From NCBI GenBank assembly GCA_964510345.1, contig CAZEBB010000007.1:3161-67160 (forward strand): a stretch of 64,000 nucleotides of DNA. Reading direction: 5' to 3'. Shown here piece after piece: positions 1 to 63,885 of this stretch. This stretch comes from an uncultured Peptoniphilaceae bacterium. Lineage in GTDB: Bacteria > Bacillota > Clostridia > Tissierellales > Peptoniphilaceae. The notes below the pieces were generated by a model. That model made no database searches. It saw only the letters and a program-made list of their open reading frames with translations, and was not told the DNA's origin. Within the stretch, counting starts at the first letter, position 1. The number at the start of each line of letters is the position of its first letter. The position numbers and the translations under genes were made by a program.

Positions 1-352
1 TCGTCCCAATCCCGCCGTAACCCAGAGGCATCGCGACATTTTCCAGTGTTGTAAAATCCGGAAGCAGATGAAATGCCTGAAAGATATAGCCGACTTCTCG
101 ATTTCTAAAGCGGGCCATTTCCGCAGGTTTTAGCTTCGCCATATCTCTTTTTCCATACAAATAGCGCCCGCTACTCGGTTGATCCATACCACCCAGTATG
201 TTTAACAATGTCGTTTTTCCAGAGCCGGACTTTCCGAACATGCAGACGTATTCTCCGCTTTTAATTTGCAGATCTACATGTTCCAGCGCTTTCGTTTCAA
301 CATTTTTACCTTTGTAGATTTTTGATATCCCTTGCAGTTGTATCATCCTCAT
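1..352 (-). CDS. ABC transporter ATP-binding protein (N-terminal part; the 3' end lies beyond the window start)
   Basis: Minus-strand translation from the ATG at 350-352 gives MRMIQLQGISKIYKGKNVETKALEHVDLQIKSGEYVCMFGKSGSGKTTLLNILGG..., with Walker A GKSGSGKT. The ATG overlaps the TAA stop (352-354) of the upstream permease, which suggests translational coupling. Confidence 0.85.
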   Translation of the reverse strand, partial: MRMIQLQGISKIYKGKNVETKALEHVDLQIKSGEYVCMFGKSGSGKTTLLNILGGMDQPSSGRYLYGKRDMAKLKPAEMARFRNREVGYIFQAFHLLPDFTTLENVAMPLGYGGIGT

Positions 353-1560
353 TACCTTTCTTGTGAAACGATTGTTGCAGGCTCTAATTTGAAAAGAGGA
401 GCGGCTAATACAAGTGCGACAATACTGATTATTGCCAAGCCTCCCAACATACCCAGCAGAACCGTTTGTGGGTGAAACATGGCATCATAGAGGTGGGTAT
501 CCCCCATGTGATTCCCTCGCAAGGCGATAAGAAGCGCCAAACCCACTCCTGTTCCGATCACTATACTTATCTCCAACAAAAGCTCAATCCATTGAGCCGT
601 CTTTGTGGAACCCATCATAAAACTCACAGCGATATCTTTTTTCCTTCGCCGAAGGAATGTGAGCATAATCCCGATGGTGGCAAGCGAAGTGATGACGACA
701 ACCATTCGGGCATGTACTTCATACTGTCTTGTCTGTTGCCGCACGACAGAAATCTCTTCTTGGACAGACCCCATCACACTCATCGGATAAACAGAAGTGC
801 CTTCCGGCAGTCGTCGATTAAACTCCTCGGTAATTTCACGAAGTAACCCGTAGGCATCCGGTGAAGGCAGATCAATCTGTATGGATTCCGACATGAGGAA
901 TCCTTCACCGGTTTTATCGGAAAGGGCTTGCAATAATTCTAATGCTTCCCCGGGTACAACCAGTGTCTCTTTCAATGGATACCGTTCCGGAAAATGCCCT
1001 TCTATTTGTTTGTTCAATCCGAAGTCAATTAACTCGTCGCGGAATGCAACTCGCTCCAGCGGGAAAGAATGGTCGTCAATCCCAAACTCCGTTTCAGAGA
1101 TTTGCAGTCCCGGAATCCGGTTTATTTTTGATCGAATTTCTTTCTCAGAGCTTTCATCTATGTACACACTCGGCGCAACCTCTCCAATCCACTTCTCCAT
1201 TGCTTTATCGGACAGCACCAGAATTTCCAGTGATTGTACGCCATTCTCGTCGAATAATGTGTATGCATACAAGCCCTTATAATACATTGGGATTTCGTCT
1301 TGGTACTTTTCTTCGATCTGTCGAAACCTTTCAAAAGTTTTTTGCGACGAATCTACGATGGCCGATGTCATGCCGATCGATAACAATAGGTATTCATCCT
1401 CGCGAAAACGCTCACTCCATTTCTTACTCTGTTCTCTTCCGGTCAGCTCTGCATTGTGTGAAATCATCATATACGAAAATCCCCAGGCGAGTTGCAGGAT
1501 AATCATCAGGTAGAATAACAAATTGGTTCTAATGTAGCGAAAGACTTTAAAAAGAATCAT
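352..1560 (-). CDS. FtsX/MacB-type ABC transporter permease (402 aa)
   Basis: ORF track. It has an N-terminal TM helix, a large extracytoplasmic domain and a C-terminal 3-TM FtsX-like block (VVVITSLATIGIMLTFLRRRKKDIAVSFMMGSTK...). It is coupled to the ATPase gene. Confidence 0.75.
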   Translation of the reverse strand: MILFKVFRYIRTNLLFYLMIILQLAWGFSYMMISHNAELTGREQSKKWSERFREDEYLLLSIGMTSAIVDSSQKTFERFRQIEEKYQDEIPMYYKGLYAYTLFDENGVQSLEILVLSDKAMEKWIGEVAPSVYIDESSEKEIRSKINRIPGLQISETEFGIDDHSFPLERVAFRDELIDFGLNKQIEGHFPERYPLKETLVVPGEALELLQALSDKTGEGFLMSESIQIDLPSPDAYGLLREITEEFNRRLPEGTSVYPMSVMGSVQEEISVVRQQTRQYEVHARMVVVITSLATIGIMLTFLRRRKKDIAVSFMMGSTKTAQWIELLLEISIVIGTGVGLALLIALRGNHMGDTHLYDAMFHPQTVLLGMLGGLAIISIVALVLAAPLFKLEPATIVSQER

Positions 1561-1564
1561 ATTC

Positions 1565-2659
1565 TCACCGGACGCTTTCTATCACTGGCTTTCGAAACGA
1601 AACCAAGGTTACGATCATCCCATAGAGTATACTGATCCCTGCCTGAACCATTAGGTACAAAAGGAATACACGAAAATCGACCGGCGCCTCCGGCATAAAA
1701 CGGCTCCATTTGAGATAAACGGGAAGCAGAAGACGAAGAATGGGCGCACTGATCAGTCCAAGCAGGAAAAAACCTATCGCATTTTCCAGAAAGATGGAAC
1801 ATGGGGAGGCCCCCAGGCACATGCGGACTCCAATTTTCTTTTTCTCCGCATCAAATCGCGCGAAAGACAGTACGGCAATACTCAAACAGGCTGCCAGCAC
1901 AATCCAAGCGGAAAGCCTCAGCATTGTGAAAGTCCCCCCTCTCATTGAAACTTGATTCATTTGAAAAAGCTCTTCAGACGTTCGGATTTGCAGTTCTCTC
2001 GTATCGACACTCTTTTCAACCAAATCCTCCATCACGTCAGGCAGAAGCTCATCTTTTACAAAAATCAGGACTGTTTTCTGATAACCCGGCGCATACAAGT
2101 CTAAAGAACTCGTATTGTGAACCCATATAGGCATCCAAAAATCGTAGGAAGAAATTCGACCGCGCACGATACAGGAGATTTGTCCCAGCTGAATCTCATC
2201 ACCGACGGAAATTGAGAAAGCCGAATTATTATGGAGAGTGGATACATAGCAAGATTTGTCATCTGGCGAAGCTGAGAGCTCCCCTTCTGTGACGATTACA
2301 TCGTGGGATTCCAAATAAGACGAATCGAAGACCATGACCGGCAACCGAGCATACCGTCCATTTTTGAAAGCATCTACACTTTGAACGGTCGATACAGCTA
2401 TACCTTCACGATTTCTGAAGCCGTTGGCGATCTCAATAACTTCATCCTCTCCAGTCATTCGGATCTCCGAAAAACCGTTTCGAAGCCTTCCGCTTTCTAC
2501 ACTTGTCTGCACTGCAAAAAACTGATTCGCATCGGCGTAGGGAACCATAAACCCGAAGATAAGAATCAGAAGAATTAGGCTGTTGCGTAAGAAATATTTG
2601 CGAAAACTGATGAGGGAGAGAGTGAGTGCATACATTTTTAATACCCGATCGTTACCCAT
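1565..2659 (-). CDS. FtsX/MacB-type ABC transporter permease (364 aa; second, non-identical permease)
   Basis: ORF track. Same topology as the neighbouring permease. FtsX signature KKKIGVRMCLGASPCSIFLENAIGFFLLGLISAP. There is a 4-nt gap to the next permease. Confidence 0.75.
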   Translation of the reverse strand: MGNDRVLKMYALTLSLISFRKYFLRNSLILLILIFGFMVPYADANQFFAVQTSVESGRLRNGFSEIRMTGEDEVIEIANGFRNREGIAVSTVQSVDAFKNGRYARLPVMVFDSSYLESHDVIVTEGELSASPDDKSCYVSTLHNNSAFSISVGDEIQLGQISCIVRGRISSYDFWMPIWVHNTSSLDLYAPGYQKTVLIFVKDELLPDVMEDLVEKSVDTRELQIRTSEELFQMNQVSMRGGTFTMLRLSAWIVLAACLSIAVLSFARFDAEKKKIGVRMCLGASPCSIFLENAIGFFLLGLISAPILRLLLPVYLKWSRFMPEAPVDFRVFLLYLMVQAGISILYGMIVTLVSFRKPVIESVR

Positions 2660-2791
2660 TCATGGAGTGCTAAAGAAATAAGGCGGCGTTAAGTCTAACG
2701 GTTGTACAAAATCCATCACGAGATCAATTTCTTTGTGCACAAAGAGTAAGCACAAAGGTATTGTCTGTATCCATGCTTCCATAGGTTATGA

Positions 2792-2818
2792 AGCACCCCT
2801 AAAATCTCAAGGGGTGCT
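2792..2818 (-). terminator. Stem-loop just downstream of the lipoprotein gene (weak terminator, poor U-tract)
   Basis: agcacccct (2792-2800) pairs with aggggtgct (2810-2818) around a 9-nt loop, about 10 nt after the stop at 2829. Confidence 0.4.
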
Positions 2819-2828
2819 GTCATTCATT

Positions 2829-3818
2829 CTATTGAGCTGTCGTCTTTTCTATCTTAACCATTTGGTTTAAGTGATCAAAAACGATGAAAAAAGTACCTTC
2901 TGTCGTTCGAATCAAATGTCCAAAAAGAGGGCTCAACTTCTCGTACTCACTCCAGTTTCCAAGGGTCTCTACATAATTTCCCACACTGTCAAATCGATCT
3001 AACGTGAAGTTCGCACCTGATGTAACGAAAAATTCACCGTTTGATACCTGGAAGTCACTGGGTGCGTACTTCGGTAGAAATGCGTAAACCTCGTTAAGGA
3101 TTCCATCACGTAATTCATACATTGCGTTGGTTCCTGAGACTCCCGCGATTGTTTGTTCCTTATTCCCTTCTGTCGTTTCGATATCTGTTGGCTCATAAAA
3201 ATTTGTTGCATACAGAGTATCCCCGTCAGAAGAAAGCGCTCCGACCCATGGTGACTGAACGAGGAACACCTCGCCGCTACCTCCCAATTCTACCATTCCC
3301 AGTGCCGATATCGTTGAGCGTATCGAGAGATATACCGTATTTCCTATCCGTTCAATATCCGAACAGATGACCGGAATATCTGTATAATCCTCATTGCGTA
3401 ATTCTAATACCGTCTCTTGAATCAAGGAGCCGGTGTTTGAATATTCGATCAAGGCGCCTCTCTTGTTGTCGAATAAAAGAATTGTCTCATCCACTAGTAT
3501 CGGACCGGGTTCCTGAACAATTGATCCTTCCAGTGTGATTTTGGCTTTATACTCACCATCCGCTCGCAAAACGTATATCGTATTTGCATTCGCTTGGTCC
3601 ATCAGATACATCTCTTCATCGAAAGAGGCAACAAATCCCGGTTTTTCCACAGTTGTGACCGGCATAAAACGAGTCGTCGAATACCCTTCATTCATGATCA
3701 TTTGAAAGTTTTCTATCGTTTGTTCCGTTTCGCTCACATCACTCGTCTGACTGGCTGTACAACCCCCAAGGATAACACCGATAAGGAGTACCGCGAGTAT
3801 CTTACGTACAATCAGCAT
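2829..3818 (-). CDS. Lipoprotein of unknown function (329 aa, beta-rich, possibly propeller-like)
   Basis: ORF track. Signal peptide ends in the lipobox-like ILGGC followed by TASQ. There are 12 nt between the upstream stop and this ATG. I recognise no family. Confidence 0.6.
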   Translation of the reverse strand: MLIVRKILAVLLIGVILGGCTASQTSDVSETEQTIENFQMIMNEGYSTTRFMPVTTVEKPGFVASFDEEMYLMDQANANTIYVLRADGEYKAKITLEGSIVQEPGPILVDETILLFDNKRGALIEYSNTGSLIQETVLELRNEDYTDIPVICSDIERIGNTVYLSIRSTISALGMVELGGSGEVFLVQSPWVGALSSDGDTLYATNFYEPTDIETTEGNKEQTIAGVSGTNAMYELRDGILNEVYAFLPKYAPSDFQVSNGEFFVTSGANFTLDRFDSVGNYVETLGNWSEYEKLSPLFGHLIRTTEGTFFIVFDHLNQMVKIEKTTAQ

Positions 3819-3830
3819 GTTTGGCTCTCA

Positions 3831-4103
3831 TTACAGCCAGCAACATCCAGACATCCAGTTTATCACATTCTTATACTCGTAATAGACTGAACCATCTATT
3901 CTTGTGCATTTTCGAGCATAGTATACACGCTGGGAGTTCTTACCATCTATTGGATTTAGATGACTTCCACATTCATAAGATCTACAAATGGGGGAGTCGG
4001 CAGACAATACGTACCAACTTCCGCAACCCCAGGCAAGTGCAATATTCGGGATGCTGACTAATATAGTCAGTATGATAAGTAGTGAGGAAATTCTCTTTTT
4101 CAT
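3831..4103 (-). CDS. Small secreted six-cysteine protein (90-aa precursor, ~66-aa mature)
   Basis: ORF track. Strong RBS (GAAAGGAGAAAAAC-ATG). Sec-type signal peptide MKKRISSLLIILTILVSIPNIALA, then WGCGSWY...; the mature part has 6 Cys and ends in CCWL. Confidence 0.6.
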   Translation of the reverse strand: MKKRISSLLIILTILVSIPNIALAWGCGSWYVLSADSPICRSYECGSHLNPIDGKNSQRVYYARKCTRIDGSVYYEYKNVINWMSGCCWL

Positions 4104-4417
4104 GTTTTTCTCCTTTCATAGGGTTCTTTTCTGATGTAAACAATTGAACTCATGATCAATTGCCTACTCCCATAATTTGCGTAGTCAAATTATCCATTGG
4201 TGATACACCTCCATGTAATCGACGTTACCTAGTTATAGCCTGATTAGGTTATCGAAATAGATCTTTAAAAATAGAATACAACTAATTCATTTGTGTCCTG
4301 AATTCAATCACTGTTTAGTGTTATGAATCAAGCGCAACCTGTCTCTATTTAGCGTTTTATGTTGGATTCTTACAATCTTTCTATACTATTGAAATATGAC
4401 CCTCTAAGCTCAATATT

Positions 4418-4828
4418 CTAGTAAATTTTGATTGTGGAATACTTTGTAATAGTTTCACCTGAGCAAGAAGCTATTGTCCTTACACGATAGCTTCCTGAAC
4501 TTGACAACGAATATTCTTTATTAATACTGACATATCCATAACCTGATGAAGAGTAAGTTCTTACATTAACCCAATTCCCCGAGCTATACCTTTGCAATGT
4601 TGATGTAATTGTTACATACTTTTTATTGTAACTAGACGCCTCTCCGAGTATCTTTGCAACTGACCCACTTATATACAGATTTGAGTCAATAAAAGAAATG
4701 TTCGCATATGCTGGTGTCACGATATTTACTTCGTTGGTATAACTCGCTTGTGCGGCATGGGTTGGCATCAAAGCAAACACAGTTAAACACAAAACCATCC
4801 ACCTAAGGGCTGTTCTCTTAAATCTCAT
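4418..4828 (-). CDS. Secreted Ser/Tyr-rich protein of unknown function (136 aa)
   Basis: ORF track. RBS GAAGGAG lies 8 nt upstream of the ATG. The signal peptide ends THAAQA. The mature part is beta-strand-like and S/Y/T rich. Confidence 0.6.
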   Translation of the reverse strand: MRFKRTALRWMVLCLTVFALMPTHAAQASYTNEVNIVTPAYANISFIDSNLYISGSVAKILGEASSYNKKYVTITSTLQRYSSGNWVNVRTYSSSGYGYVSINKEYSLSSSGSYRVRTIASCSGETITKYSTIKIY

Positions 4829-4853
4829 ATTCTCTACTCCTTCTCTTTCTACT

Positions 4854-5528
4854 TTACTTGATGATAGTGGTCAGAAAAATTTCTTCTACCACCTTAGGGT
4901 TTTCATTTGACTGGATCAGTATCAAAGTATCTTTCTCTATCCAAACGATTTGAATCATATCCTCCTTTACGTATTCATGCGCGGTCACATCTTGTTTCTC
5001 GATAACCTTAAATTCGGAGTCTTCCGAGTCGATATTGAATGACGTTCCTTCCGCCGGTGTCAATCTGACTCGTATAAAATGTCCTTCTTCATCTTCATAG
5101 ATATATCTGGTAATCAGTTCCTCATTCGTCGAATCGACGAGTTCAAATCCTTTTGGAATTCCATTTACCTCAACTTGGGCGAGCTGTACCATATCTTCAG
5201 TCATCGAATCAGTGTTGGTTTCTGCCTGATATGAGGTATATGAGCTAAATGTTTCTATACGAATTCCAAAGAACTCAAGCGCTTTTGCCCACGTTTCTGT
5301 AGGAATTAATAGCGAGATGACGATAAGCAGCGTCGCTGCGATACCCGCACGGTAAACCGAGAGAATCTTTTTCCTTCTTTTCTTACTCTTTTCAACGGCT
5401 TCTAACCGTTTTTGTAATCTAAAATCATCTTGCGCAGTAAAATCCGGTTCTACATCCGAGAGCTGTTCATATGGGATTCCCTGTGCAAGCAATTGGTCGA
5501 TGTGCTTTTCAATGTCTTTTTCATTCAT
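4854..5528 (-). CDS. Putative anti-sigma factor (single-pass membrane protein with a DUF4367-like extracytoplasmic domain)
   Basis: ORF track. It lies immediately downstream of the ECF sigma gene and has a central TM helix (ILSVYRAGIAATLLIVISLLIP). The C-terminal domain resembles the DUF4367 type common in clostridial anti-sigma factors. There is no zinc-binding HxxxCxxC motif. Confidence 0.55.
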   Translation of the reverse strand: MNEKDIEKHIDQLLAQGIPYEQLSDVEPDFTAQDDFRLQKRLEAVEKSKKRRKKILSVYRAGIAATLLIVISLLIPTETWAKALEFFGIRIETFSSYTSYQAETNTDSMTEDMVQLAQVEVNGIPKGFELVDSTNEELITRYIYEDEEGHFIRVRLTPAEGTSFNIDSEDSEFKVIEKQDVTAHEYVKEDMIQIVWIEKDTLILIQSNENPKVVEEIFLTTIIK

Positions 5529-5545
5529 TTGCCCTCTCCTGCCCT

Positions 5546-5584
5546 CCTATAGATAAATCGATTGGGGATCGCAAAATATGACAT
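5546..5584 (-). promoter_or_regulatory. Promoter-like motif ATGTCA-N17-TCGATTTAT (copy 2, between the sigma and anti-sigma genes)
   Basis: The minus strand reads atgtcatattttgcgatccccaatcgatttatctatagg. Both blocks and the spacing match the copy upstream of the sigma gene. Confidence 0.35.
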
Positions 5585-5588
5585 GTGA

Positions 5589-6101
5589 TTACGATTTTTC
5601 ATCATTTTCTATTTCTTTCAAATAGTATGCTTGAAAGCTCTGCTTTGCGCGCTGCAAAGTCTTAGCGACGGAGCTCTCTCGGATGCCGAATTTCTCTGCT
5701 ATTTCGCGATTCGAATAGCCGATCATATACTTACAGCGCAATAAGTCGGCTTCTCTTTGAGGCATTTCTTCCAGGATGGCATCGACGAGTTCGATTTCTT
5801 TCGGTGGGGTTTCCTCGGCGAGTTGGCCGATTTGTTCGTAGAGTTCCTCTTCTTTTACGCTCCGGCGGATCTTGTCGATGCTTTTGTTTTTTGCGATGCG
5901 ACAGATGAGTGCTAGGGTCTTATACTCGTCGGTGAGGTCCAATGTTTCGAATTTTTCGAGCAACTCAACAAAGACATCCTGTGCGATGTCTTGTGCGAGA
6001 AGTGAGTCCTTCAGCAGCGCGTAGGCCACTTGAAAGGCTCTTTTTCGATACAAGAGATAATACTCGTAGATAATTTCGGACGGTTTCTGTGATCGGCGCA
6101 T
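5589..6101 (-). CDS. RNA polymerase sigma factor, ECF (sigma-70 group 4) family
   Basis: ORF track, 170 aa. Region 2 (DIAQDVFVELLEKF) and region 4 HTH (YSNREIAEKFGIRESSVAKTLQRAKQ) are recognisable. Confidence 0.85.
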   Translation of the reverse strand: MRRSQKPSEIIYEYYLLYRKRAFQVAYALLKDSLLAQDIAQDVFVELLEKFETLDLTDEYKTLALICRIAKNKSIDKIRRSVKEEELYEQIGQLAEETPPKEIELVDAILEEMPQREADLLRCKYMIGYSNREIAEKFGIRESSVAKTLQRAKQSFQAYYLKEIENDEKS

Positions 6102-6126
6102 ACTTCACCCCCTCGAGCGACACACC

Positions 6127-6167
6127 CCTATGTAAATAAATCGAATGGGAAACCCGTTTTGTGACAT
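6127..6167 (-). promoter_or_regulatory. Promoter-like motif ATGTCA-N17-TCGATTTAT (copy 1, upstream of the ECF sigma gene; candidate autoregulated promoter)
   Basis: The minus strand reads atgtcacaaaacgggtttcccattcgatttatttacatagg and ends 25 nt upstream of the sigma ATG. Confidence 0.4.
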
Positions 6168-6244
6168 TATTGAGATAGTATTTATTATATCGTGAATAAC
6201 TACTAGAAATACTTATTCCAAATTCGAGAACGAAACAGCTGTGT

Positions 6245-6273
6245 AAAAGCAAAAACCGGGGTTGCCCCCGGTT
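6245..6273 (-). terminator. Rho-independent terminator of clpC
   Basis: Minus-strand AACCGGGG-GCAA-CCCCGGTT is followed by TTTGCTTTT. Confidence 0.7.
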
Positions 6274-41597: not shown

Positions 41598-41748
41598 TGT
41601 TTCACCTCCATGTAAGGCTACGATGAAAAAAAGGTCTGCCCAAAGATGGACAGACCTACCTATACAAAGATCTTTTCCACCTCTGCAGGATTTTTACATC
41701 CAAGGGATCCCTGCGGTCTTCGGTAGCCAATGTTGTATTAACTTGTTT
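41598..41748 (-). promoter_or_regulatory. rplJ 5' leader with an intrinsic terminator/attenuator hairpin (L10-leader-like)
   Basis: A ~150-nt UTR lies between the promoter and the start. Minus-strand AGGTCTGTCC-ATCTTTG-GGCAGACCT is followed by TTTTTTTT (41624-41657), 27 nt upstream of the GTG. This fits the L10(L12)4-controlled attenuation described for Firmicutes. Confidence 0.45.
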
Positions 41749-55666: not shown

Positions 55667-58600
55667 TTAATTGATGACTAACGGATTTCTGCCTGCGTCG
55701 ATCTCAAACTTGTCACCCATGCGGTCGCCGTCAGTATCGCGGTTCAACGGATCCGTCTTGTATCCAAGTGTACCGTGATATTCATCGTAATCAGAAATTC
55801 TGTCACCGTCGGTATCTCGATTGAGCGGATCGGTAAAGGTGACCTCTTTCTCAAAGCAATCGGTGAGTCCGTCTCCATCTGTGTCGATGCAGTCGATGAC
55901 AACCACTTCTTTTGGATCGGATGCGGGTTTGTCGCCGTCTTTCGCTACGACATCGATCACATCGCCTGTGTTGATCTTTTCGGGATCTACTGGAATCGAG
56001 AAATCTCCGTTTTCATCCGCTTTTCCGGTGTACTCGGTTCCGTCGGGCAGGGTTACTGTAACATCTGCGTTCGGTTCCGTCGTACCGGTGATCTTGTCAT
56101 CGGACTCGTGAACAGGATCAACCGTCGGTTGCGGGGTCTTGTCTTGATCAACAACCGTTACGAAAACTGGATCGCTCGGTGTTTTACCATCTTCGGTTTG
56201 AGTGACTTCGATGTCAGTACCCGGTACCAGATCAGTACCTTCCGGTACAGGTACAGTCCACGTTCCATCATCGTCTACGGTCGTCGTAATCGGGTCGGTT
56301 ACGCCAGGGATCGTGACGGTGATCTCAGCCCCCGGTTTTCCTGTTCCGTCGATCGTCGTGTCACCTGCCACCGGTGTTTCTACGGTCGGTTTCTCACTTT
56401 CTCCCGGAGTCGGTTTGTCTACCACAGTCGCCGTTGCAGGAATACTCGGTGTCTTGCCGTCTTCCGTTTGCGTAGCGGTGATTTCATCGCCGGCCGTCAA
56501 CTCTGTGCCTTCCGGTACAGGTACGCTCCACGTTCCATCATCGCCTACCGTCGTCGTAATCGGATCGGTTACACCCGGGATTGTGACGGAGATCTCGGCG
56601 CCAGGTGTTCCGGTTCCGTCAATTGTCGTGTCGCCTGCCACAGGTTGCGTGATGTTTGGTGTTGTGCTTTGATCCGGTGCCGGTTTTTCATCTACTGGTA
56701 CGACAACCGGTTCACTCGGATCTTTATCCGTTTCAGTTTGCGTTACGGTTACATCCGTACCCGGTACTAAATCAGTACCTTCCGGTACAGTAGCGGTCCA
56801 TGTTCCGTCATCGCCTACCGTTGTTGTCACAGGATCGGTTACGCCTGGGATCTTAACGTCAATCGTCGATCCCGGTACGCCGCCGCCGGTGATTTCCGTA
56901 TCGCCTTCCGTAATTGGATTAACCGTCGGTTGATCACTTTGCGTGACCGGTTTTTCGCCTACGGTTGCCGTAGCCGGATCACTCGGAGTTTTTCCTTCTT
57001 CGGTTTGCGTAGCGGTGATTTCATCGCCTGCCGTCAACTCTGTTCCAGCCGGAACAGGTGCTGTCCATGTTCCATCCGTACCTACGGTTGCTGTCACAGG
57101 ATCGGTTACGCCGGGGATCTTAACGTCAATCGTCGATCCCGGTACACCGCCGCCGGTGATTTCCGTATCGCCTTCCGTAATTGGATTAACAGTCGGTTGA
57201 TCACTTGGGATGACCGGTATGACATTCTTGTTATACGTTGCCGTATAAGTTGCGTCAGCCGTTACATTCCCAGTTGCAACAGGATCCCATGCTTTGAAGG
57301 TATAGTCTTCATCTACTGTGATTCCCGTTGCGTCAGCAGCGTTCAGTCCAGCTTTAGTAAAGACATCCGCTACAGGCACTGTACCATCTTTCAAGACAAA
57401 GTATTCTTTAGTCTCTACGATGGGGGTTCCACCGAAGTTTCCATTGGTGCCGGAATCTAAGGTGACTTTCGCAAATCGGTCAGGATCCGGGTTATTTGGA
57501 TTCTCCGGAGTCACAGGGACGATCTTATCTACGACGGTCGCGGTGGCGTCTGCACTCGGTAATAATCCGGGTTCGGTTTGGTTGGCAGTGACATCGGTGC
57601 CGTTCACTAACGGTTTGTCAGCCGGTACATCCACACTCCATGTGCCGTCGGTGCCTACGGTGACGGTGACGGGCTCGGTTTGCCACGGTACGGTGACGGT
57701 GACGTCGGCTCCGGCTACACCGGTTCCGGTAATCGTGGTGTCGCCTACAACGGGTTGGTTAATCGTCGGGGTCGCGGATGCGCCTTTGGCAACATAGGTG
57801 GCCGTATAGGTGGCATCGGCGGTGACGTTTCCGGTAGCGGCTGGATCCCATTTGTCGAAGTTGAAATCGCCCACAACGGTAATGCCTGTCGCATCGGCCG
57901 GGTTTAATCCTGCTTCTGTAAATACGTCAGCAACGGCAACGGTGCCGTCTTTCAGCACGTAGTAGTCTTTGGTCTCTACAACGGGGTCTCCGCCGAAGTT
58001 TCCGTTGGTACCGGAATCTAGGGTGACTTTTGCGAATCGGTTAGGATCCGGGTTGTTTGGATTCTCGGGATCAATCGGGATGATCTTATCGACGACGGTT
58101 TCGGTAGCTGTATCGCTGACCGTCTTTCCGCTTTCTATTTGTTGCGCGGTGATTTCGTCATCTACCTTGAGGGTAATTCCTGCCGGTACATCAACTGTCC
58201 AGTTTCCATCTGGATCGACAGTCGCTGCGATGGTTCCTTCTACACCCGGAATTGTAACAGCAACTTCTGCGTCGGGGACTCCGGTTCCGGTGATTGTGGT
58301 GTCACCAACAACAGGTTGGTCAATCGTCGGAGTCGGCGTTTTTTCCATTGGCACATATTGTGCCGTGAAGGTATTATTTGCCGCCGTAACCGCAGTGGTA
58401 ATGGAAGGCGTCCAACCATTGGCTATAAAACCTGCATCAGGGGCAATCGTCGGTACATATTTTCCGAGGATGACGGTGTTCTCCATGACATCTAATAGAA
58501 TGCTGCCGTCTGTTTGCGCGGATGTGCCGGTTGCCGGTGTGAGCGATCCGTTTGCCCCTTCTAGTAAGGTGACGCGGATATAACCTGCCGGCGTTTCGGT

Positions 58601-61600
58601 CGTAGGATCTTCTACCGGGATGGTCGTTTCAAGTTGATTCAGCTGAACCGTAAACTTGTTAACTGTGTCGCTTACCAGTTCGGTAATCGCAGGAGACCAC
58701 GGTTCTGCCTTTACTTCATAGCCGACTTTCGGCGCAATATTCGGGACATATTTTTCAAGGATTGCCGTTCCTTCTTTGACATCCAGCAAAATAGTTCCGT
58801 TTGTTTGAACGGTTGTGCCGAGTGCGGGGTTAAACGTTGCGTTCGTCGTCGGATCCAAGGTCACGCGGATATATCCTTCCGGTGTTGGATCGGTCGGATT
58901 GGTAACCGGGATCGTCGTTTCCAATTCAGTGTACTGTGCGGTAAATAGATTCACGGCATCAGACACTATAGTCGTAATCGCAGGATCCCATGGATCGGTC
59001 GCAACTTTAAAGCCGACGTTCGGGTTGATGGTTGGAACATACTTTTCTAAAATCGCGGTGTCCTTGAACACATCCAACAGAATCGTGCCATTTGTTTGCG
59101 CTGTTGTTCCACTTGCCGGTGTGAAGGATCCGTTCGTTGCAGGATCTAACGTGACGCGAACATAACCGGGGGGAGTGGGATCATTCGGGTTAATGACCGG
59201 AATGGTCGTATCCAATTGCGTGTATTGTGCGGTGAATGTGTTGTTATCTACAGTCACCGGTGTGGTGATCGCCGGATCCCATCCGTTGGCTGAATAGCCG
59301 TCGTTCGGATCGATTGTCGGAACATATTTTGTCAAGATGGCCGTATCCGGCTTAACATCCAAAACGATCGTTCCATTTGTTTGAAGCGTAGTTCCATCTG
59401 CAGCGATCAAACTTCCGTTCGCACCGGGTTGCAGTGTGACACGAACATAGCCGGGTGTCACCGGATCGGTATCCGGATTGGTTACAGGAATCGTCGTATC
59501 CAATGCAGTGTACTGCACAGAGTAGTTTTGTCTTGGATACGTGCCGTTGACTTCGCCCGTATAGTCATCTGCGGGGATTGCCGGTGTCCATGGGTCGGTT
59601 GCGTTTACAATCCAACCGGTCTCCAGCGTCATATCCGCTACTAGCGGCATGACCGCTTTGACTTCGTCAAACGTAACGCCGTTCAGAACGTCGAAGTGGA
59701 TTTGTCCTGCATAGCTACCTGTTGCAATAAAATAGTTATCCGAGGGTGCAAAGCTTCCGTGCGTATTGATCGCATCTGTTCCCGGAAGGAATACTACGCG
59801 GTGATAGCCGGGTTTCGGAGTCGTGTCTCCAGCACCTGGATCGACCGGATCGACGACCGCGCCAAAGTTTGCCGTGAAGCTCGTGTCTGTCATATCTTTG
59901 ACAGTAGTGGCTTCTGCCGGGAATGCCGGGGTCCAGTCAAGATGTTCGTAACCAGGATTCCCAACTGCCGTCGGCACGGGGATATCTGCAAAGGTTAATG
60001 TGTCCTTTACATCGTACGTGATCGTACCACCCGTAGCCGTAGATCCCGATTTTGTAGACGTAATCGTACCATTGGGTCCAGCCGTAAAGGTAATACGTTT
60101 ATAGCCGGCCGGCGGTGTAACGTCTGTCGGGTTTTCGATGATCGCATCGCGATATGTCGCGTTGTATACCATAGTGTCAGTTTCGGCTGCTACTGCGTCA
60201 TCCGCTGGGAGTGGTGTATCCCATCCGGCGAAAGAGTGGCCAGCATCCGCAATCGGGTCATACAATACGGACTTAACTTCCGCATACGGGGTGCCGAGCA
60301 ACACATCGATGATTTTTACATCAAATTTCGTGTGTGTTCCGTCAATCGATTCAAAATCTCCGAACTCACCACTGTTGAAGGTCAGGCGGATGTAGCCATC
60401 CGGAGGATTTGGAGTGCCCGGGTCTTCAATAATATTCTGATTGAAAACTGCGGTATAGGTTGCACCGGGGATTACGGTATCGGTAAGTTGGATTGCGGTG
60501 AGAGGATCTCCGGTTTTCCAAACGTACCCGGTGACATCTGCGTCAGCGTTTTTCGTTGCGACAGGCGCTTTGATATTTTCCAAAATGTCTGTCTTGAGTG
60601 CGTACATTTGCCATAGGCCTGTTGTATCGCCCGGTACCGGTTTTTGTTGCGTCCAAGCCGGAGCTTCAGGTCGTAAGGACAAAGTTCCGTTTCCGTCGGT
60701 GTTAAAGTAAATCAGCGTTTCTAAAACATCCGCTACGCCATTCTCGTTTGCATCTTTTTGTACGGTAATGGTGAACGTCTTGGGGTCTGCTGTGTTCCCT
60801 GCGGCGTCTGTCGCGTTCAAGGTAATGGTGAAGGTCTTCTCTTCATCCGTACCCCAGTCAGCTACCGTAGGTGTTCCTGAGAACGTACCGGTTGCGGGAT
60901 CAAACGTGACGCCCCCCAATTCTGCAGGGATCGTTGCTGTGATCTCCGTTCCGTCGTTGGTCTTTGCAACCACGCCCGTTGGAAGCGCGTTTCCTTCGAG
61001 GACTTTCTGATTAGCCGGTGGAGTAATGACAGGTTTCACATAATCCATTACGGCGCTGTCGGTCGCTTTTTCCGAGGTGTTTCCGGAAACGTCTTGAATG
61101 GTTACATCTGTAGTCAATTTTCCATCTTGTGGCGGCAACGGAATATTGGGAATGGTCACGGTGCCTGCTGCGATATCATCGGCTGTCAATGTATGGGTAA
61201 AGCCGGGGATACCGTCGCCGTTTAGGTCAACCTGCACCACATCTCCCACAACTGCGTCTGTGGGTAAATCAACTTTTAAGTCGGTTGTTGTTGCTGCACC
61301 TTTTTCTTCTGCACTGATGAAACCATCATCGTTTGCATCGATGAGGATTTCTACAGAAGTGGGTGCACTTGGCGGAATGGTATCAGGTTCTGAAATGGTC
61401 ACCGGAATTGTTACGGTTGCCGTGTAACCATTGGCTTCTGTTACAGTGATCGCCACTTGCGAAGTGCCGGCAGCTGTCGGCGTTCCAGAAATCACACCGG
61501 TTGTCGGGTCGATCGATAGCCCTGCCGGTAAACCAGTTGCCGTAAACGAATATGCCTCTTCGCCTCCTGCGACAATTGGCGCCGGTGCGGTATACGGAAC

Positions 61601-63742
61601 ATTCTGTGTACCGTTCGGCAGTTGAGCTTCAATCGTCAGTTTTTCCAATACGACGATGGGCTTGTCTACTTGCGTGACGGTTTCTGTGATCGTCTTGGTT
61701 GGGTCTGCGGGATCCGGATAGGTTACCTTGTAAGTGATATCGAACAGATGTGTATCCGTTGTCGTGTTTGCATCGATATCCGGTTTCCCCGACAGATTGT
61801 TGGTGTCTGCGTTGGAAAGCGTAACGGCTGACGGTAAATCGGTCGCTGTGCGGGTCAACGTATAATTCGCTGGAAGTGCTACCGGATCGTATACGACCGA
61901 TACTACTCCGTTTGTTTCGGTATCTTCCATGGCGGGTTTGTCGACATTGCCGTCGAAGATATAGATCGTCTTTTCAACGTATACGTCGTAAGGCGGCTGT
62001 GTTACTCCGTTATAAGCCGGTCCTTGACCTGTCACCTTAAAGCGAACTTTGTATTCGCCTGAGGTTCCATCTGCAGGGGTTCCGGTAATCATGCCCGTGG
62101 CGGGGTCTAAACTCAAGCCCGTCGGTAACGCTCCAAAACCGCCATCAATGGCATCTTGGGTCGTCGTGTCGATCGCATAGGTGTAAGAATGATCAACCAT
62201 CGGCTGCGGTGTGATATCTTCCACTAGACCGGTTGTACTGTTAACGCGTTGATTAGGACTGTACACCTGGCCGGTATACGCCGCTCCTTCAGCGCCAATC
62301 GGTGTAACCGCACCAGCCGCTACCGCGATAAAGCTATCGTACAGAACCTCACTTCCAAATGGCGTAATTAGAACCGCGCGATAAACCGTCGTCTCTTTAA
62401 GTGATTGCGGCACCGTATAAGAGGTTTCCGGTAAGTGTCCATCGGCTGACGGTACAAGGTTCTCGTAGATGGCAACTTGTTCGTAAGTTACCGCGTCGGA
62501 ATTCGGCGTGGGTATAATTTTGTCCCAACGAATTTTGTAGCTACCACTGTTGGGTGCCCAACCCGTCGCAAGTGTATGCGCAGTGTCTCCGGCGCCTGCA
62601 AAGCGAGAGGTCGTGTCATAGTCGTAAATCTCAAACGTTGTACCCTGTGACTTAAGAGCCACGTGCACATTGGTAATGTAGTTTTCAACATTATTCGTTC
62701 CTGGATTCGGACCCGTCACAGCATCACGGCTGAGGTCTTGGGCTTGATAGAAATTGTTGCCACCCATCGGTGTCCATTGTGCTAAACCTAACGGCGCATC
62801 CACAGAAATATTGATGAACGGACGATTTCCCCATAATGCTGCGGTCATTCCTCTTCCATTGTAATCTGTCGGATTATCAAAGTAGAATTCACCGTTTGAG
62901 TTTGTCAAGACTTTGTAGGTTTTTAATGCCGGTCCATTTTCGTTATCCGCAAAAGACAAATAGACAGGGATACCGGCTGCAGGGACATCTCCATCTCCAG
63001 GATTGTAGTAGGGGTTAAACGAAATACCCGCTACGTATTCCCAGTCAAAAAATACTTTTCCTGTAACTCTGTTATAGAGTCCGCCCGGAAGGCTCGGCGG
63101 GGTCACTCCCTGATCGATCAGATTGGTCGAAATGGATGTGGCTGGGATCGGACGCTGTTGTAGCGCGATATGATAGCCTCGTACACTACCGGAGATCCAT
63201 GTCGTCGCCCAAGTAAAATTGTAGTTTCCGTATCCGTCTTGATAGGAATTCGAGACGACATCATAGTTATTCGCTTCCAACCAAGCCGGATCCGCCCAGA
63301 CGCGTATTTGCTGGTTAGCGCTGATTACACCTTTAAAGGTATGCACTTTCCCAAATGGGTCTGTCCAGTTTGGTACTAAGTTAGAGAACGAACCATCATC
63401 TTTGGATGTGGTCTTGTAGATCGGGCTCATGAATCCATCGCTATCGATCCATTGATAGAAGAGATCGACTCTGCCGACATAAGTGTCGGTTGAACTTGCA
63501 TATGCGGTCGTAATGTCTGAGCCGGGACTGGTATGATCCTCCCAGATTGAACCATTGATGGTTGCCGGCGCGTTTTGAGCGGCTTGATCCACCCAAATGG
63601 CTTCAGCCATCGTGTCGCCGGCGGCTGCATACACCGCTTCCGGTTTAGCAAACCCTCCTACGGGGACAACCCCGAGGACCATCGCAAAGACAAGGAGCCA
63701 AGCTACGACTCGCTTAGCACTTGCGTATTGCATTTTCTTCAC
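55667..63742 (-). CDS. Giant modular surface adhesin (~2690 aa) with no recognisable wall or membrane anchor
   Basis: The probable start is the GTG at 63740-63742, 8 nt after AAAGGAG (MKKMQYASAKRVVAWLLVFAMVLGVVPVGGFA...). Domains: SdrD-B/Cna-B-like N-terminal region, He_PIG/cadherin-like motifs (LPTGLSLDPATGMITGTP; LPAGLSIDPTTGVISGTP), about 9 Listeria-Bacteroides-repeat-like modules, 7 Ig-like modules and a C-terminal bacterial TSP3 repeat tail. LPXTG, CWB2, SLH and LysM are all absent. Confidence 0.85.
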   Translation of the reverse strand: MKKMQYASAKRVVAWLLVFAMVLGVVPVGGFAKPEAVYAAAGDTMAEAIWVDQAAQNAPATINGSIWEDHTSPGSDITTAYASSTDTYVGRVDLFYQWIDSDGFMSPIYKTTSKDDGSFSNLVPNWTDPFGKVHTFKGVISANQQIRVWADPAWLEANNYDVVSNSYQDGYGNYNFTWATTWISGSVRGYHIALQQRPIPATSISTNLIDQGVTPPSLPGGLYNRVTGKVFFDWEYVAGISFNPYYNPGDGDVPAAGIPVYLSFADNENGPALKTYKVLTNSNGEFYFDNPTDYNGRGMTAALWGNRPFINISVDAPLGLAQWTPMGGNNFYQAQDLSRDAVTGPNPGTNNVENYITNVHVALKSQGTTFEIYDYDTTSRFAGAGDTAHTLATGWAPNSGSYKIRWDKIIPTPNSDAVTYEQVAIYENLVPSADGHLPETSYTVPQSLKETTVYRAVLITPFGSEVLYDSFIAVAAGAVTPIGAEGAAYTGQVYSPNQRVNSTTGLVEDITPQPMVDHSYTYAIDTTTQDAIDGGFGALPTGLSLDPATGMITGTPADGTSGEYKVRFKVTGQGPAYNGVTQPPYDVYVEKTIYIFDGNVDKPAMEDTETNGVVSVVYDPVALPANYTLTRTATDLPSAVTLSNADTNNLSGKPDIDANTTTDTHLFDITYKVTYPDPADPTKTITETVTQVDKPIVVLEKLTIEAQLPNGTQNVPYTAPAPIVAGGEEAYSFTATGLPAGLSIDPTTGVISGTPTAAGTSQVAITVTEANGYTATVTIPVTISEPDTIPPSAPTSVEILIDANDDGFISAEEKGAATTTDLKVDLPTDAVVGDVVQVDLNGDGIPGFTHTLTADDIAAGTVTIPNIPLPPQDGKLTTDVTIQDVSGNTSEKATDSAVMDYVKPVITPPANQKVLEGNALPTGVVAKTNDGTEITATIPAELGGVTFDPATGTFSGTPTVADWGTDEEKTFTITLNATDAAGNTADPKTFTITVQKDANENGVADVLETLIYFNTDGNGTLSLRPEAPAWTQQKPVPGDTTGLWQMYALKTDILENIKAPVATKNADADVTGYVWKTGDPLTAIQLTDTVIPGATYTAVFNQNIIEDPGTPNPPDGYIRLTFNSGEFGDFESIDGTHTKFDVKIIDVLLGTPYAEVKSVLYDPIADAGHSFAGWDTPLPADDAVAAETDTMVYNATYRDAIIENPTDVTPPAGYKRITFTAGPNGTITSTKSGSTATGGTITYDVKDTLTFADIPVPTAVGNPGYEHLDWTPAFPAEATTVKDMTDTSFTANFGAVVDPVDPGAGDTTPKPGYHRVVFLPGTDAINTHGSFAPSDNYFIATGSYAGQIHFDVLNGVTFDEVKAVMPLVADMTLETGWIVNATDPWTPAIPADDYTGEVNGTYPRQNYSVQYTALDTTIPVTNPDTDPVTPGYVRVTLQPGANGSLIAADGTTLQTNGTIVLDVKPDTAILTKYVPTIDPNDGYSANGWDPAITTPVTVDNNTFTAQYTQLDTTIPVINPNDPTPPGYVRVTLDPATNGSFTPASGTTAQTNGTILLDVFKDTAILEKYVPTINPNVGFKVATDPWDPAITTIVSDAVNLFTAQYTELETTIPVTNPTDPTPEGYIRVTLDPTTNATFNPALGTTVQTNGTILLDVKEGTAILEKYVPNIAPKVGYEVKAEPWSPAITELVSDTVNKFTVQLNQLETTIPVEDPTTETPAGYIRVTLLEGANGSLTPATGTSAQTDGSILLDVMENTVILGKYVPTIAPDAGFIANGWTPSITTAVTAANNTFTAQYVPMEKTPTPTIDQPVVGDTTITGTGVPDAEVAVTIPGVEGTIAATVDPDGNWTVDVPAGITLKVDDEITAQQIESGKTVSDTATETVVDKIIPIDPENPNNPDPNRFAKVTLDSGTNGNFGGDPVVETKDYYVLKDGTVAVADVFTEAGLNPADATGITVVGDFNFDKWDPAATGNVTADATYTATYVAKGASATPTINQPVVGDTTITGTGVAGADVTVTVPWQTEPVTVTVGTDGTWSVDVPADKPLVNGTDVTANQTEPGLLPSADATATVVDKIVPVTPENPNNPDPDRFAKVTLDSGTNGNFGGTPIVETKEYFVLKDGTVPVADVFTKAGLNAADATGITVDEDYTFKAWDPVATGNVTADATYTATYNKNVIPVIPSDQPTVNPITEGDTEITGGGVPGSTIDVKIPGVTDPVTATVGTDGTWTAPVPAGTELTAGDEITATQTEEGKTPSDPATATVGEKPVTQSDQPTVNPITEGDTEITGGGVPGSTIDVKIPGVTDPVTTTVGDDGTWTATVPEGTDLVPGTDVTVTQTETDKDPSEPVVVPVDEKPAPDQSTTPNITQPVAGDTTIDGTGTPGAEISVTIPGVTDPITTTVGDDGTWSVPVPEGTELTAGDEITATQTEDGKTPSIPATATVVDKPTPGESEKPTVETPVAGDTTIDGTGKPGAEITVTIPGVTDPITTTVDDDGTWTVPVPEGTDLVPGTDIEVTQTEDGKTPSDPVFVTVVDQDKTPQPTVDPVHESDDKITGTTEPNADVTVTLPDGTEYTGKADENGDFSIPVDPEKINTGDVIDVVAKDGDKPASDPKEVVVIDCIDTDGDGLTDCFEKEVTFTDPLNRDTDGDRISDYDEYHGTLGYKTDPLNRDTDGDRMGDKFEIDAGRNPLVIN
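55670..55891 (-). repeat. C-terminal thrombospondin type-3-like Ca-binding repeats (3 copies)
   Basis: DTDGDGLTD, TDPLNRDTDGDRISDYDE and TDPLNRDTDGDRMGDKFE within the last 74 aa. Confidence 0.75.
55892..58342 (-). repeat. Array of seven ~81-91-aa Ig-like modules, with two ~100-aa Flg_new-like modules interspersed
   Basis: Recurrent pattern P..GDT.I.G.G.PG..(V/I).V.(I/L)PG......T(V)..DG.W.V.VP....L..G..(I/V)...Q. Module boundaries computed from the translation: 55892-56134, 56135-56395, 56396-56665, 56666-56938, 56939-57205, 57515-57778 and 58076-58342. Confidence 0.75.
58343..59512 (-). repeat. Four tandem ~97-aa Listeria-Bacteroides (Flg_new)-like modules; more divergent copies extend to about 60.4 kb
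   Basis: The unit Y(T/N)(Q/E/A)L(D/E)TTIPV.(N/D)P....P.GY(I/V)RVTL..(G/T).N.(S/T)(F/L)...GT..QT(N/D)G(T/S)I(L/V)LDV....(A/V)IL.KYVP(T/N)I.P..G(Y/F)......W.P.IT..V.....F(T)(A/V)Q repeats at 58343-58642, 58643-58933, 58934-59224 and 59225-59512. Confidence 0.7.
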
Positions 63743-63885
63743 ACTTTTCACTCCTTTTCTAAAAGAAAATTGCTCGTGTTGTACATTCGTTTTCGTTGTG
63801 ATTTCACCTCCGAGAATTTTCATAGCGCAAGTGTTGGTTTTTAATTTCGATCGGGTATAAATTGTATTTACATACATTTATACAT

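Follow-up and report, generated by a model that had tools for sequence, protein, structure and literature searches.

At the start of a 64-kb stretch of contig CAZEBB010000007.1 from an uncultured Peptoniphilaceae bacterium, analysed as a whole and called the window here, lies an island of eight genes, located from the open reading frames (ORFs) of the window and carried on the minus strand throughout (Table 1). Five of them form a cassette for a secreted miniprotein with six cysteines, a lipoprotein, two unlike permeases (A and B) and an ATP-binding cassette (ABC) ATPase; the other three encode a sigma factor of the extracytoplasmic function (ECF) type, a single-pass membrane protein with a DUF4367 domain and a secreted protein of 136 amino acids (aa). 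A first-pass annotation, made from the letters alone, had listed the same eight genes, and all of them were recovered at its coordinates, the ATPase being cut by the window edge (its full length on longer contigs is 220-222 aa). The reading that we favour for the cassette is that of a bacteriocin-like toxin that would be encoded together with the means of protecting its producer.

Table 1. Features of the island and its clpC edge, numbered from the first letter of the window (nt, nucleotides)
Feature	Position	Strand	Basis
ABC ATPase, first 117 codons only, runs off window start	1..352	-	translation
Permease B, 402 aa	352..1560	-	ORF
Permease A, 364 aa	1565..2659	-	ORF
Stable hairpin 3' of lipoprotein gene	2793..2817	-	-19.5 kcal/mol, z = -3.64
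Lipoprotein, 329 aa, NHL/DUF5128-type	2829..3818	-	ORF and profile matches
Six-Cys miniprotein precursor, 90 aa	3831..4103	-	ORF
AT-rich spacer, 315 nt, 33% G+C, between regulatory module and cassette	4104..4417	-	
Secreted Ser/Tyr/Thr-rich protein, 136 aa	4418..4828	-	ORF
Single-pass DUF4367 protein, 224 aa, presumed anti-sigma	4854..5528	-	DUF4367 match, position
Motif copy 2, ATGTCA-N18-CGATTTAT, candidate ECF-type promoter	5553..5584	-	exact match
ECF-type sigma, 170 aa	5589..6101	-	Sigma70_r2 and r4_2
Motif copy 1, ATGTCA-N18-CGATTTAT, candidate autoregulatory ECF promoter	6136..6167	-	exact match
clpC intrinsic terminator, right-hand island edge	6254..6273	-	8-bp stem, 6 G-C pairs, T-run

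Proteins of the cassette

The miniprotein precursor consists of a 24-aa Sec signal (cleavage between ALA and W; 4032-4103) and a 66-aa mature part (3834-4031) of about 7.65 kDa, with an isoelectric point (pI) of 8.3, six Cys and 11 aromatic residues. Together with its counterparts from six related loci (L016, L023, L024, L026, L010 and L040 of Table 2) it makes up a seven-member alignment, A8. In all seven a Sec-type signal precedes a mature part of 61-67 aa (6.9-7.7 kDa, 8-11 aromatic residues), and all share six invariant Cys in the framework C-x10-12-C-x4-C-x18-22-C-x18-20-CC, the first of them lying at mature position 3 or adjacent to it and the CC pair being followed by 0-3 residues. The L016 homologue was found with 78 bits (phmmer) and the L040 homologue at 8e-8 (BLASTP), while a hidden Markov model (HMM) built from the mature sequences only, and run against 2,940 ORFs, found L023 at 1e-5 and L024 at 1.7e-3; L026 and L010 were counted as members on the strength of Cys framework, signal peptide, search rank and synteny. 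No member of the family reaches a model of Pfam or NCBIfam, and among the PDB sequences nothing matched the profile of the family; the L016 protein scores 20.3 bits on Pfam DUF7170, below the gathering threshold of 27 and thus a lead only. A scan of Joint Genome Institute (JGI) metagenomes with the miniprotein alignment and a tblastn search of plasmids with the miniprotein gave no match either. In L023 the miniprotein ORF (536-787) was passed over by the gene finder, which called an overlapping 90-aa ORF in another frame (316-588) instead, so that members of the family may be systematically under-annotated. Judged by its sequence, the miniprotein founds an uncurated family.

The lipoprotein (lipobox ILGG-C20) scores 24.0 bits on DUF5128 ('6-bladed beta-propeller'), above the gathering threshold of 22.9, and finds its L016 counterpart with 52 bits (phmmer). 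Searched against the PDB, a profile of 10 lipoprotein orthologues retrieved NHL propellers, namely 6d69 (Thin) at 1.6e-61, TRIM71, Brat, PknD, NHLRC2, SOQ1 and PAL; DUF5128 is matched by seven of the 10 orthologues and NHL by five, and an arylesterase-type match was also seen. These profile matches assign the lipoprotein to the six-bladed beta-propellers of NHL/DUF5128 type; a single-sequence AlphaFold2 model, with a predicted local distance difference test (pLDDT) score of 46.4, is too poor for a count of the blades. In all related loci of sufficient length an orthologue of the lipoprotein immediately precedes permease A. The hairpin that follows its gene has no proper U-tract and was not called by the terminator scan. 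It may be an attenuator or an RNA-stabilising element, which would perhaps set the ratio of the miniprotein and lipoprotein transcripts to those of the pump.

Permeases A and B each have one N-terminal and three C-terminal transmembrane (TM) segments and an extracytoplasmic loop of about 200-250 aa (about 250 aa in B), and share no detectable similarity with each other; the start codon of the ATPase overlaps the permease B stop (TGATG). On FtsX both fall below the gathering threshold of 25.5 (B at 22.2 bits, A at 16.4), and ADOP is the only NCBIfam model that either of them matches (1.8e-7 for A). The positional orthologues of permease A in L023, L024 and L026 pass the FtsX threshold (42.8, 32.1 and 27.7), and those of L023 and L026 also pass that of MacB_PCD (38.7 and 30.4, threshold 27), the L024 protein staying below it at 24.6. 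The full 220-aa ATPase, taken from the contig L004, matches ABC_tran at 6.6e-35; its best NCBIfam match is LolD with 258.4 bits (cut-off 307.75), it scores 207.5 bits on FtsE, and its matches to DarD and MacB are also below their cut-offs. By these scores the ATPase is classed as a nucleotide-binding subunit of MacB/LolD/FtsE type, and topology and positional orthologues together place the pump in the MacB/FtsX (type VII) ABC superfamily. An exhaustive HMMER search of 1.84 billion representatives returned 45 members of the permease B family at E<=1e-3 and seven at E<=1e-10; no match to the permease B alignment was found in the JGI metagenome scan, nor any match to permease B among plasmids by tblastn. 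Searches with phmmer matched the window proteins only to ORFs in the corresponding cassette positions, and each related cassette has its B orthologue at the place that B takes here, so that A and B represent two distinct orthologous lineages of old standing. The pairing of two unlike permeases with one ATPase, noticed already in the first-pass annotation, is real, and it is conserved in the relatives. On another contig of the same island (L038:6581-7474) permease A was called with 297 aa, compared with 356-364 aa elsewhere, and either a different start site or a truncation could explain this. Permease B has its closest relative (66% identity) on L011, a 1,470-bp contig of 50.6% G+C from Logan run DRR480202 that holds, in the same order, the end of A, then B and the start of the ATPase.

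A pump of this type raises the question of an FtsEX-like mechanotransmission, in which the two-permease ABC would control the propeller lipoprotein, as an enzyme or receptor, in wall remodelling or cell-cell signalling, with the miniprotein as ligand or inhibitor. The FtsX-type permeases with their large extracytoplasmic loops and the score of the ATPase on FtsE agree with it, as does the fact that NHL-type propellers include enzymes (PAL, arylesterase). Nonetheless, the alignment of the lipoproteins holds only four invariant residues and no conserved catalytic motif, no hydrolase gene accompanies the cassette, and a mobile, AT-rich and patchy locus with variable regulators is ill-suited to a housekeeping function in the wall, so we give this explanation a small chance at best, and return to that of a toxin with self-protection.

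Recurrence in other lineages

Related loci were found through the contigs of permease B relatives and one scan of the GTDB representative genomes. The cassette is present in at least 10 other Bacillota lineages, with a permease B that is 20-32% identical to that of the window, and the core order of miniprotein, propeller lipoprotein, permease A, permease B and ATPase is conserved. The gene set on whose recurrence the first-pass annotation had staked its proposal is thus conserved in its five-gene core. All parts are found in six of the loci in Table 2 (L016, L023, L024, L026, L010 and L040, leaving aside an adjacent ATPase in L026), while L012, L009 and L008 are without a miniprotein. The L019 contig breaks off upstream of the lipoprotein genes, so that a miniprotein cannot be judged there, and the contigs of L039 and L011 are too short for the cassette to be judged at all.

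Table 2. Gene content of related loci, in order (MAG, metagenome-assembled genome)
Locus	Source	Genes
L016	Peptoniphilaceae MAG	90-aa protein, 323-aa lipoprotein, A, B, ATPase
L023	ENA metagenome assembly ERZ27276730	uncalled 83-aa ORF, NHL lipoprotein, A, B, start of ORF in ATPase position (29 codons, contig end)
L024	Logan contig, run SRR29749762	thioredoxin-like protein, 89-aa protein, NHL propeller protein, A, B, ATPase
L026	ENA metagenome assembly ERZ28601516	85-aa protein, DUF5128 lipoprotein, thioredoxin-like lipoprotein, A, B
L010	Bacillota MAG	AgrC-type kinase, AgrB, 85-aa protein, thioredoxin-like lipoprotein, propeller lipoprotein, A, B, ATPase
L040	Logan contig, run ERR14127477	thioredoxin-like protein, 91-aa protein, DUF5128 lipoprotein, A, B, ATPase
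L019	GCA_023443025.1	two propeller lipoproteins, A, B, ATPase, PedC-like protein, second permease/ATPase set

The propeller protein of L024 has an N-terminal hydrophobic segment and is without a lipobox Cys. Several of the accompanying genes are informative. Thioredoxin-like proteins with a CxxC motif are encoded with the cassette in five lineages (L008, L010, L024, L026 and L040), and L019 adds a distant match, at 1.9e-9 and below the cut-off, to the PedC/BrcD 'bacteriocin maturation disulfide isomerase'; such neighbours would fit an extracellular oxidation of the six-Cys product, and genes of this sort are typical companions of bacteriocins with disulfides. Upstream of the cassette, L010 has AgrB (4.1e-41) and an AgrC-type kinase, and L012 a LytTR response regulator and a kinase. 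Control by agr or LytTR systems is typical of bacteriocin loci.

The lineages without a miniprotein have kept much of the remainder. In L009, a close relative of L010, the miniprotein gene is gone and so is the thioredoxin gene, except for the last ~130 nt of the latter, with the propeller lipoprotein, the permease pair and the ATPase left intact. L012 has kept the pump, its lipoprotein being a remnant of 66-73 aa. Ezakiella peruensis (L008) has three tandem propeller lipoproteins, a thioredoxin lipoprotein and both permeases, and no miniprotein, which its near relative L026 does have. Protection genes that are kept or multiplied in the absence of the toxin gene would be the signature of orphan immunity loci.

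The cassette also behaves as a mobile module, being AT-rich relative to its flanks in four genomes, the window included (G+C of 0.43 vs 0.565 in L012, 0.41 vs 0.52 in L016 and 0.36 vs 0.48 in L024); in L016 a transposase adjoins it upstream. Some loci show rearrangements of their own. In L019 (5817-9357) a second set of permease A, permease B and ATPase, accompanied by a 173-aa membrane-anchored protein, looks like a tandem duplication of the pump. In L026 (4796-6115) and L008 (11077-14216) permease B is followed not by an ATPase gene but by a membrane protein of 86-92 aa, and both also have a lipoprotein of 320-334 aa with an acidic, Ser/Thr/Asp/Glu-rich repeat linker; between these two genes L008 carries one for a fused ABC transporter of 535 aa. 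Finally, L012 (6397-11853) and L015, from Logan runs SRR29243439 and SRR16642430 that both also contain the island of the window, hold a second, degenerate cassette. It consists of LytTR regulator, kinase, lipoprotein remnant, A, B (32% identical to that of the window) and ATPase, and it adjoins leuABCD at 56.5% G+C, like the host of the window, so that the same or a closely related organism is possible.

The recurrence also bears on the explanation that unrelated genes, acquired horizontally and possibly decaying, came together by chance and form no functional unit. Searched against 5.8 billion proteins with a word index, the miniprotein, the lipoprotein and the 136-aa protein each matched only themselves, and the AT-rich, foreign composition would suit such an origin as well. 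However, the same search missed the L016 homologues of the miniprotein and the lipoprotein, so that a self-only result there is no proof of orphan status; the same gene order in at least 10 other divergent lineages already contradicts chance, and all ORFs of the island are intact and identical on at least 20 contigs from different sequencing runs. We consider chance juxtaposition very improbable. The earlier statement that none of the three exported proteins could be placed in a family stands for the 136-aa protein, which is an orphan, falls for the lipoprotein with its NHL/DUF5128 assignment, and needs rewording for the miniprotein, which has homologues, though no curated family.

Origin and regulation of the island

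The G+C content is 0.427 at positions 1-6250, compared with 0.527 in the remaining window and 0.557 in clpC, and it drops from about 0.55 to about 0.45 at the clpC terminator; at third codon positions (GC3) it is 0.34-0.55 in the island genes and 0.68-0.74 in clpC, mcsB and the EF-G gene. The hand counts from which the first-pass annotation had called the block AT-richer than the clpC operon (24/60 and 35/60) are exact. On longer contigs, radA is seen on the island's other side from clpC. The gene order in Bacillus subtilis is ctsR-mcsA-mcsB-clpC-radA, and an island located between clpC and radA therefore splits this order. An identical ClpC is encoded on 20 contigs, the island being present in 20/20, so that no empty site was observed; direct repeats and an integrase were not found at the island flanks. 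A scan of the island with Rfam gave no match, and PADLOC gave no defence-system match except a weak one to the CARF family on the helix-turn-helix region of the sigma factor. The horizontal acquisition that the composition had suggested is now supported by the shift in G+C and GC3, the clpC-radA position and the AT-rich cassettes in three other genomes, and we regard the island as a horizontally acquired, foreign block of 6 kb downstream of clpC.

The sigma factor matches Sigma70_r2 (1.5e-11) and r4_2 (7.2e-11), scores 68.5 bits on TIGR02937 (cut-off 42.9) and reaches no equivalog; its domains mark it as an ECF-type factor with regions 2 and 4 only. The DUF4367 protein (35.7 bits, gathering threshold 22.1) has a cytoplasmic N-terminus of 53 aa, one TM segment at 54-81 and a DUF4367 ectodomain; it matches no anti-sigma domain model of Pfam and is presumed from its position to be the anti-sigma factor. 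The top-ranked direct-repeat family of the region is a 35-nt repeat, the core of which, ATGTCA-N18-CGATTTAT, has exactly two exact matches in the window. Copy 1 ends 34 nt upstream of the sigma start and copy 2 ends 24 nt upstream of the DUF4367 gene start, and the two form a plausible candidate for an autoregulatory pair of ECF promoters. Under such control the most certain member of the regulon would be the 136-aa gene, which follows that of the DUF4367 protein after 25 nt. It encodes a signal peptide that ends in AQA before S, and its product is rich in Ser (22), Tyr (13) and Thr (13); the protein has no homologue in the related loci and only sub-threshold matches in Pfam and the PDB (PDB E ~0.25). 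A 166-aa secreted protein near the L009 cassette was considered as its counterpart and rejected, as the two have no similarity.

In the spacer (4104-4417) no minus-strand promoter or terminator, meaningful ORF, Rfam match or significant structure (z = -1.19) was found, and with no promoter or terminator predicted there, read-through from the ECF module is possible. The sigma factor probably autoregulates from its two candidate promoters, and may drive the cassette by read-through. The first-pass annotation had gone further and taken the ECF pair as dedicated to the exporter and small-protein genes, which needs correcting, in that the pair is no conserved part of the system: it is absent from all related loci, and no motif copy lies upstream of the miniprotein gene (4103) or of 2659, even allowing 3 mismatches. 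By this comparison the window locus is the only one to encode an ECF sigma, a DUF4367 protein and the 136-aa protein, and the ECF pair is best described as a local add-on. On a contig of the same island from Logan run SRR29243439 (L035:14566-15417), the spacer after the 136-aa gene holds a transposase gene of the IS3 family (rve, HTH_21), and the contig ends there; this may be a population variant in which the ECF module is uncoupled from the cassette, or the assembly may have broken at a repeat.

An ECF pair directly upstream, with a duplicated promoter-like motif, could also be taken as the sensor of an envelope-stress or resistance module directed against exogenous antimicrobials, in which ECF sigma and DUF4367 protein would induce the MacB-type ABC and the lipoprotein, with the miniprotein and the 136-aa protein as accessory envelope proteins. 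YknWXYZ would be a precedent (for its role against SDP, see PMC4887032), and the ATPase belongs in the MacB/LolD clade. Yet it is the Cys-rich miniprotein, in seven lineages, and not the ECF pair, that is conserved with the cassette, and the agr and LytTR regulators and the PedC-like gene suggest the production of a secreted peptide rather than defence alone. We therefore find a pure resistance module improbable.

Elsewhere in the window, two features were seen that lie apart from the island. A ribosomal protein L10 leader (RF00557, 62.3 bits; 41618-41741, minus strand) is the sole Rfam match above the gathering threshold in the window, and a very long ORF of 2,736 aa (55667-63877, minus strand) is found toward its far end.

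Toxin, self-protection and known systems

The cassette would, with a probability that we put somewhat above even, combine a Sec-dependent, three-disulfide bacteriocin-like toxin with self-protection by a lipoprotein and a MacB-type ABC; toxicity and immunity are what we infer from the gene content and its conservation. The miniprotein, whose signal is plain to see, would be exported by Sec and oxidised outside the cell to three disulfides, in many relatives with the aid of a thioredoxin-like or PedC-like protein, and would then attack the envelope of competing cells. The propeller lipoprotein, anchored at the surface, might bind the miniprotein and so protect the producer, while the heterodimeric ABC could expel it from the membrane surface through ATP-driven movement of its large extracytoplasmic domains. 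LanI with LanFEG, which act against lantibiotics, would be a parallel, and a MacB-type ABC that guards against a secreted peptide toxin has a precedent in YknYZ and SDP (PMC4887032). In this organism the cassette came by horizontal transfer with, or beside, the genes for sigma factor, DUF4367 protein and 136-aa protein. A bolder version is conceivable and is offered tentatively: the miniproteins would form a new class of Sec toxins of ~7 kDa with three disulfides, captured by the NHL lipoprotein and ejected by mechanotransmission through a LolCDE-like MacB-type ABC in a monoderm, the whole being a mobile, AT-rich module under ECF, agr or LytTR control, with the toxin-less copies as orphan immunity.

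Several results weigh against a toxin with self-protection. The miniprotein has no homology to characterised bacteriocins in Pfam, NCBIfam or the PDB. A single-sequence AlphaFold2 model of its mature part (pLDDT 56.6) is unusable, and a Foldseek search of the PDB with this low-confidence model gave no match at E<=0.001. Two of the seven family members, L026 (0.06-0.3) and L010 (0.086), are top-ranked but individually non-significant by HMM. The mature pI spans 4.8-9.0 in the family, so that these are not uniformly cationic peptides. The results on regulation given above, namely the missing motif copy before the miniprotein gene and the absence of the ECF pair from the relatives, count here as well. 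Lastly, thioredoxin-like domains are fused to NHL propellers in SOQ1 and NHLRC2, by which the lipoprotein could be a folding partner instead of an immunity protein.

This last point leads to the main alternative, that of maturation and release, in which the NHL lipoprotein (with the thioredoxin-like protein) would fold and oxidise the Sec-exported miniprotein, be it a toxin, a signal or something else, and the MacB-type ABC would free it from the membrane or wall zone. MacAB-TolC, which exports the periplasmic, disulfide-bonded enterotoxin STII, would be an analogue. Thioredoxin-like proteins stand beside NHL propellers in five cassettes, the two fusions are among the PDB matches of the lipoprotein profile, and no more than 12 nt separate the miniprotein gene from that of the lipoprotein. 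Against this, the miniprotein-less L009 and L012 keep intact permeases and ATPase, L008 has even multiplied its lipoproteins, and L009 lost its thioredoxin gene with the miniprotein gene and kept that of the propeller. Pump and lipoproteins that are retained without a miniprotein are hard to explain if their sole job is to process it, and we regard maturation and release as unlikely, albeit worth keeping in mind. The toxin with self-protection accommodates these orphan cassettes, and the claim of the first-pass annotation that the locus recalls a bacteriocin with its immunity is in this sense strengthened by the conserved cassette, the thioredoxin-like, PedC-like, agr and LytTR neighbours and the toxin-less copies; its more specific comparison, to the lactococcin-972 type, holds as an analogy only, as set out below.

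A full-text search of the literature found no description of the cassette, and neither DUF5128 nor DUF7170 was mentioned in any paper found. Should the miniprotein prove antimicrobial, it would represent a new family of bacteriocins, attractive for engineering because the six-Cys scaffold is fixed and the loops vary greatly, and the propeller lipoprotein with its two-permease MacB-type ABC would be a new immunity architecture. The locus is also a case of one effector cassette that is re-wired to ECF, agr or LytTR control, and the miniprotein family is invisible to Pfam, NCBIfam, word-indexed search and the one gene call that was checked (L023).

Among the known systems, lactococcin 972 (Lcn972) is a natural comparison, as it likewise has a Sec precursor of ~90 aa followed by permease and ATPase genes presumed to be self-protective. 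Mature Lcn972 has ~66 aa; here too the mature part has 66 aa and is presumably unmodified, as no gene for a modification enzyme lies in the island. The ATPase resembles L_ocin_972_ABC (TIGR03608) with 207.4 bits, below the family cut-off of 254.85. Unlike Lcn972, which is without cysteines (PMC8538875), the cassette encodes a protein with six invariant Cys, and it adds two 4-TM MacB-type permeases and an NHL lipoprotein. The Lactococcin_972 models of Pfam and NCBIfam gave no match at E<=1 to the miniprotein and five relatives (alignment A4). A lactococcin-972-type locus was rejected, since there is no match to the structural gene, the ATPase stays below the cut-off and the permeases match ADOP only.

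YknWXYZ of B. subtilis, which is under the control of the ECF factor sigma-W, shares with the island the logic of an ECF factor and a MacB-type ABC. According to PMC4887032, the MacB-type ABC YknYZ protects the producer from the Sec-exported, Cys-containing SDP toxin. In our case two unlike permeases take the place of a single one, the toxin gene would lie inside the cassette, and there is an NHL lipoprotein. Neither a YknX-type membrane-fusion protein nor YknW, SdpI or SdpR was found among the ORFs of the island or by Pfam. With these genes absent from the island, and with a sigma factor that scores 40.9 bits on SigW (cut-off 243.1), the YknWXYZ/SdpC type was rejected. The first-pass annotation had already remarked that the gene content fits neither this type nor lactococcin 972; our comparisons agree, and both serve as analogies only.

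The disulfide-dependent secreted peptides of pediocin-type loci are likewise accompanied by ABC genes, and a PedC/BrcD-like protein occurs in the related L019 cassette. A class IIa (pediocin-like) bacteriocin was rejected, as none of the seven sequences of A8 has a YGNGV box or a double-glycine leader; they carry a Sec signal in place of a double-glycine/GA leader with a C39 ABC exporter. Actifensin, which is defensin-like, has six Cys (PMC6989792). This count is all that the two have in common, as mature actifensin has 37 aa, compared with 61-67 aa here, and a different Cys framework.

Two further systems share a layout in which a lipoprotein goes together with two different permeases. Lantibiotic immunity relies on the LanI lipoprotein and LanFEG, with 6-TM LanEG of ABC-2 type, encoded beside the bacteriocin gene. 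A surface lipoprotein, two different permeases and one ATPase are thus found in both, with the differences that the permeases here are of FtsX/MacB type, that the lipoprotein is a beta-propeller, and that neither a lantibiotic peptide nor modification enzymes are present. Membership in the LolCDE system was rejected, since the ATPase is below the LolD cut-off, the permeases match ADOP only and nothing indicates a role in lipoprotein trafficking. The LolCDE-style arrangement of the first-pass annotation holds for the layout, if not for the family: two unlike 4-TM permeases share one ATPase, with a lipoprotein gene next to them. The cassette offers a tractable Bacillota example of the heterodimeric type VII ABC, which is otherwise best known from LolCDE in Gram-negatives.

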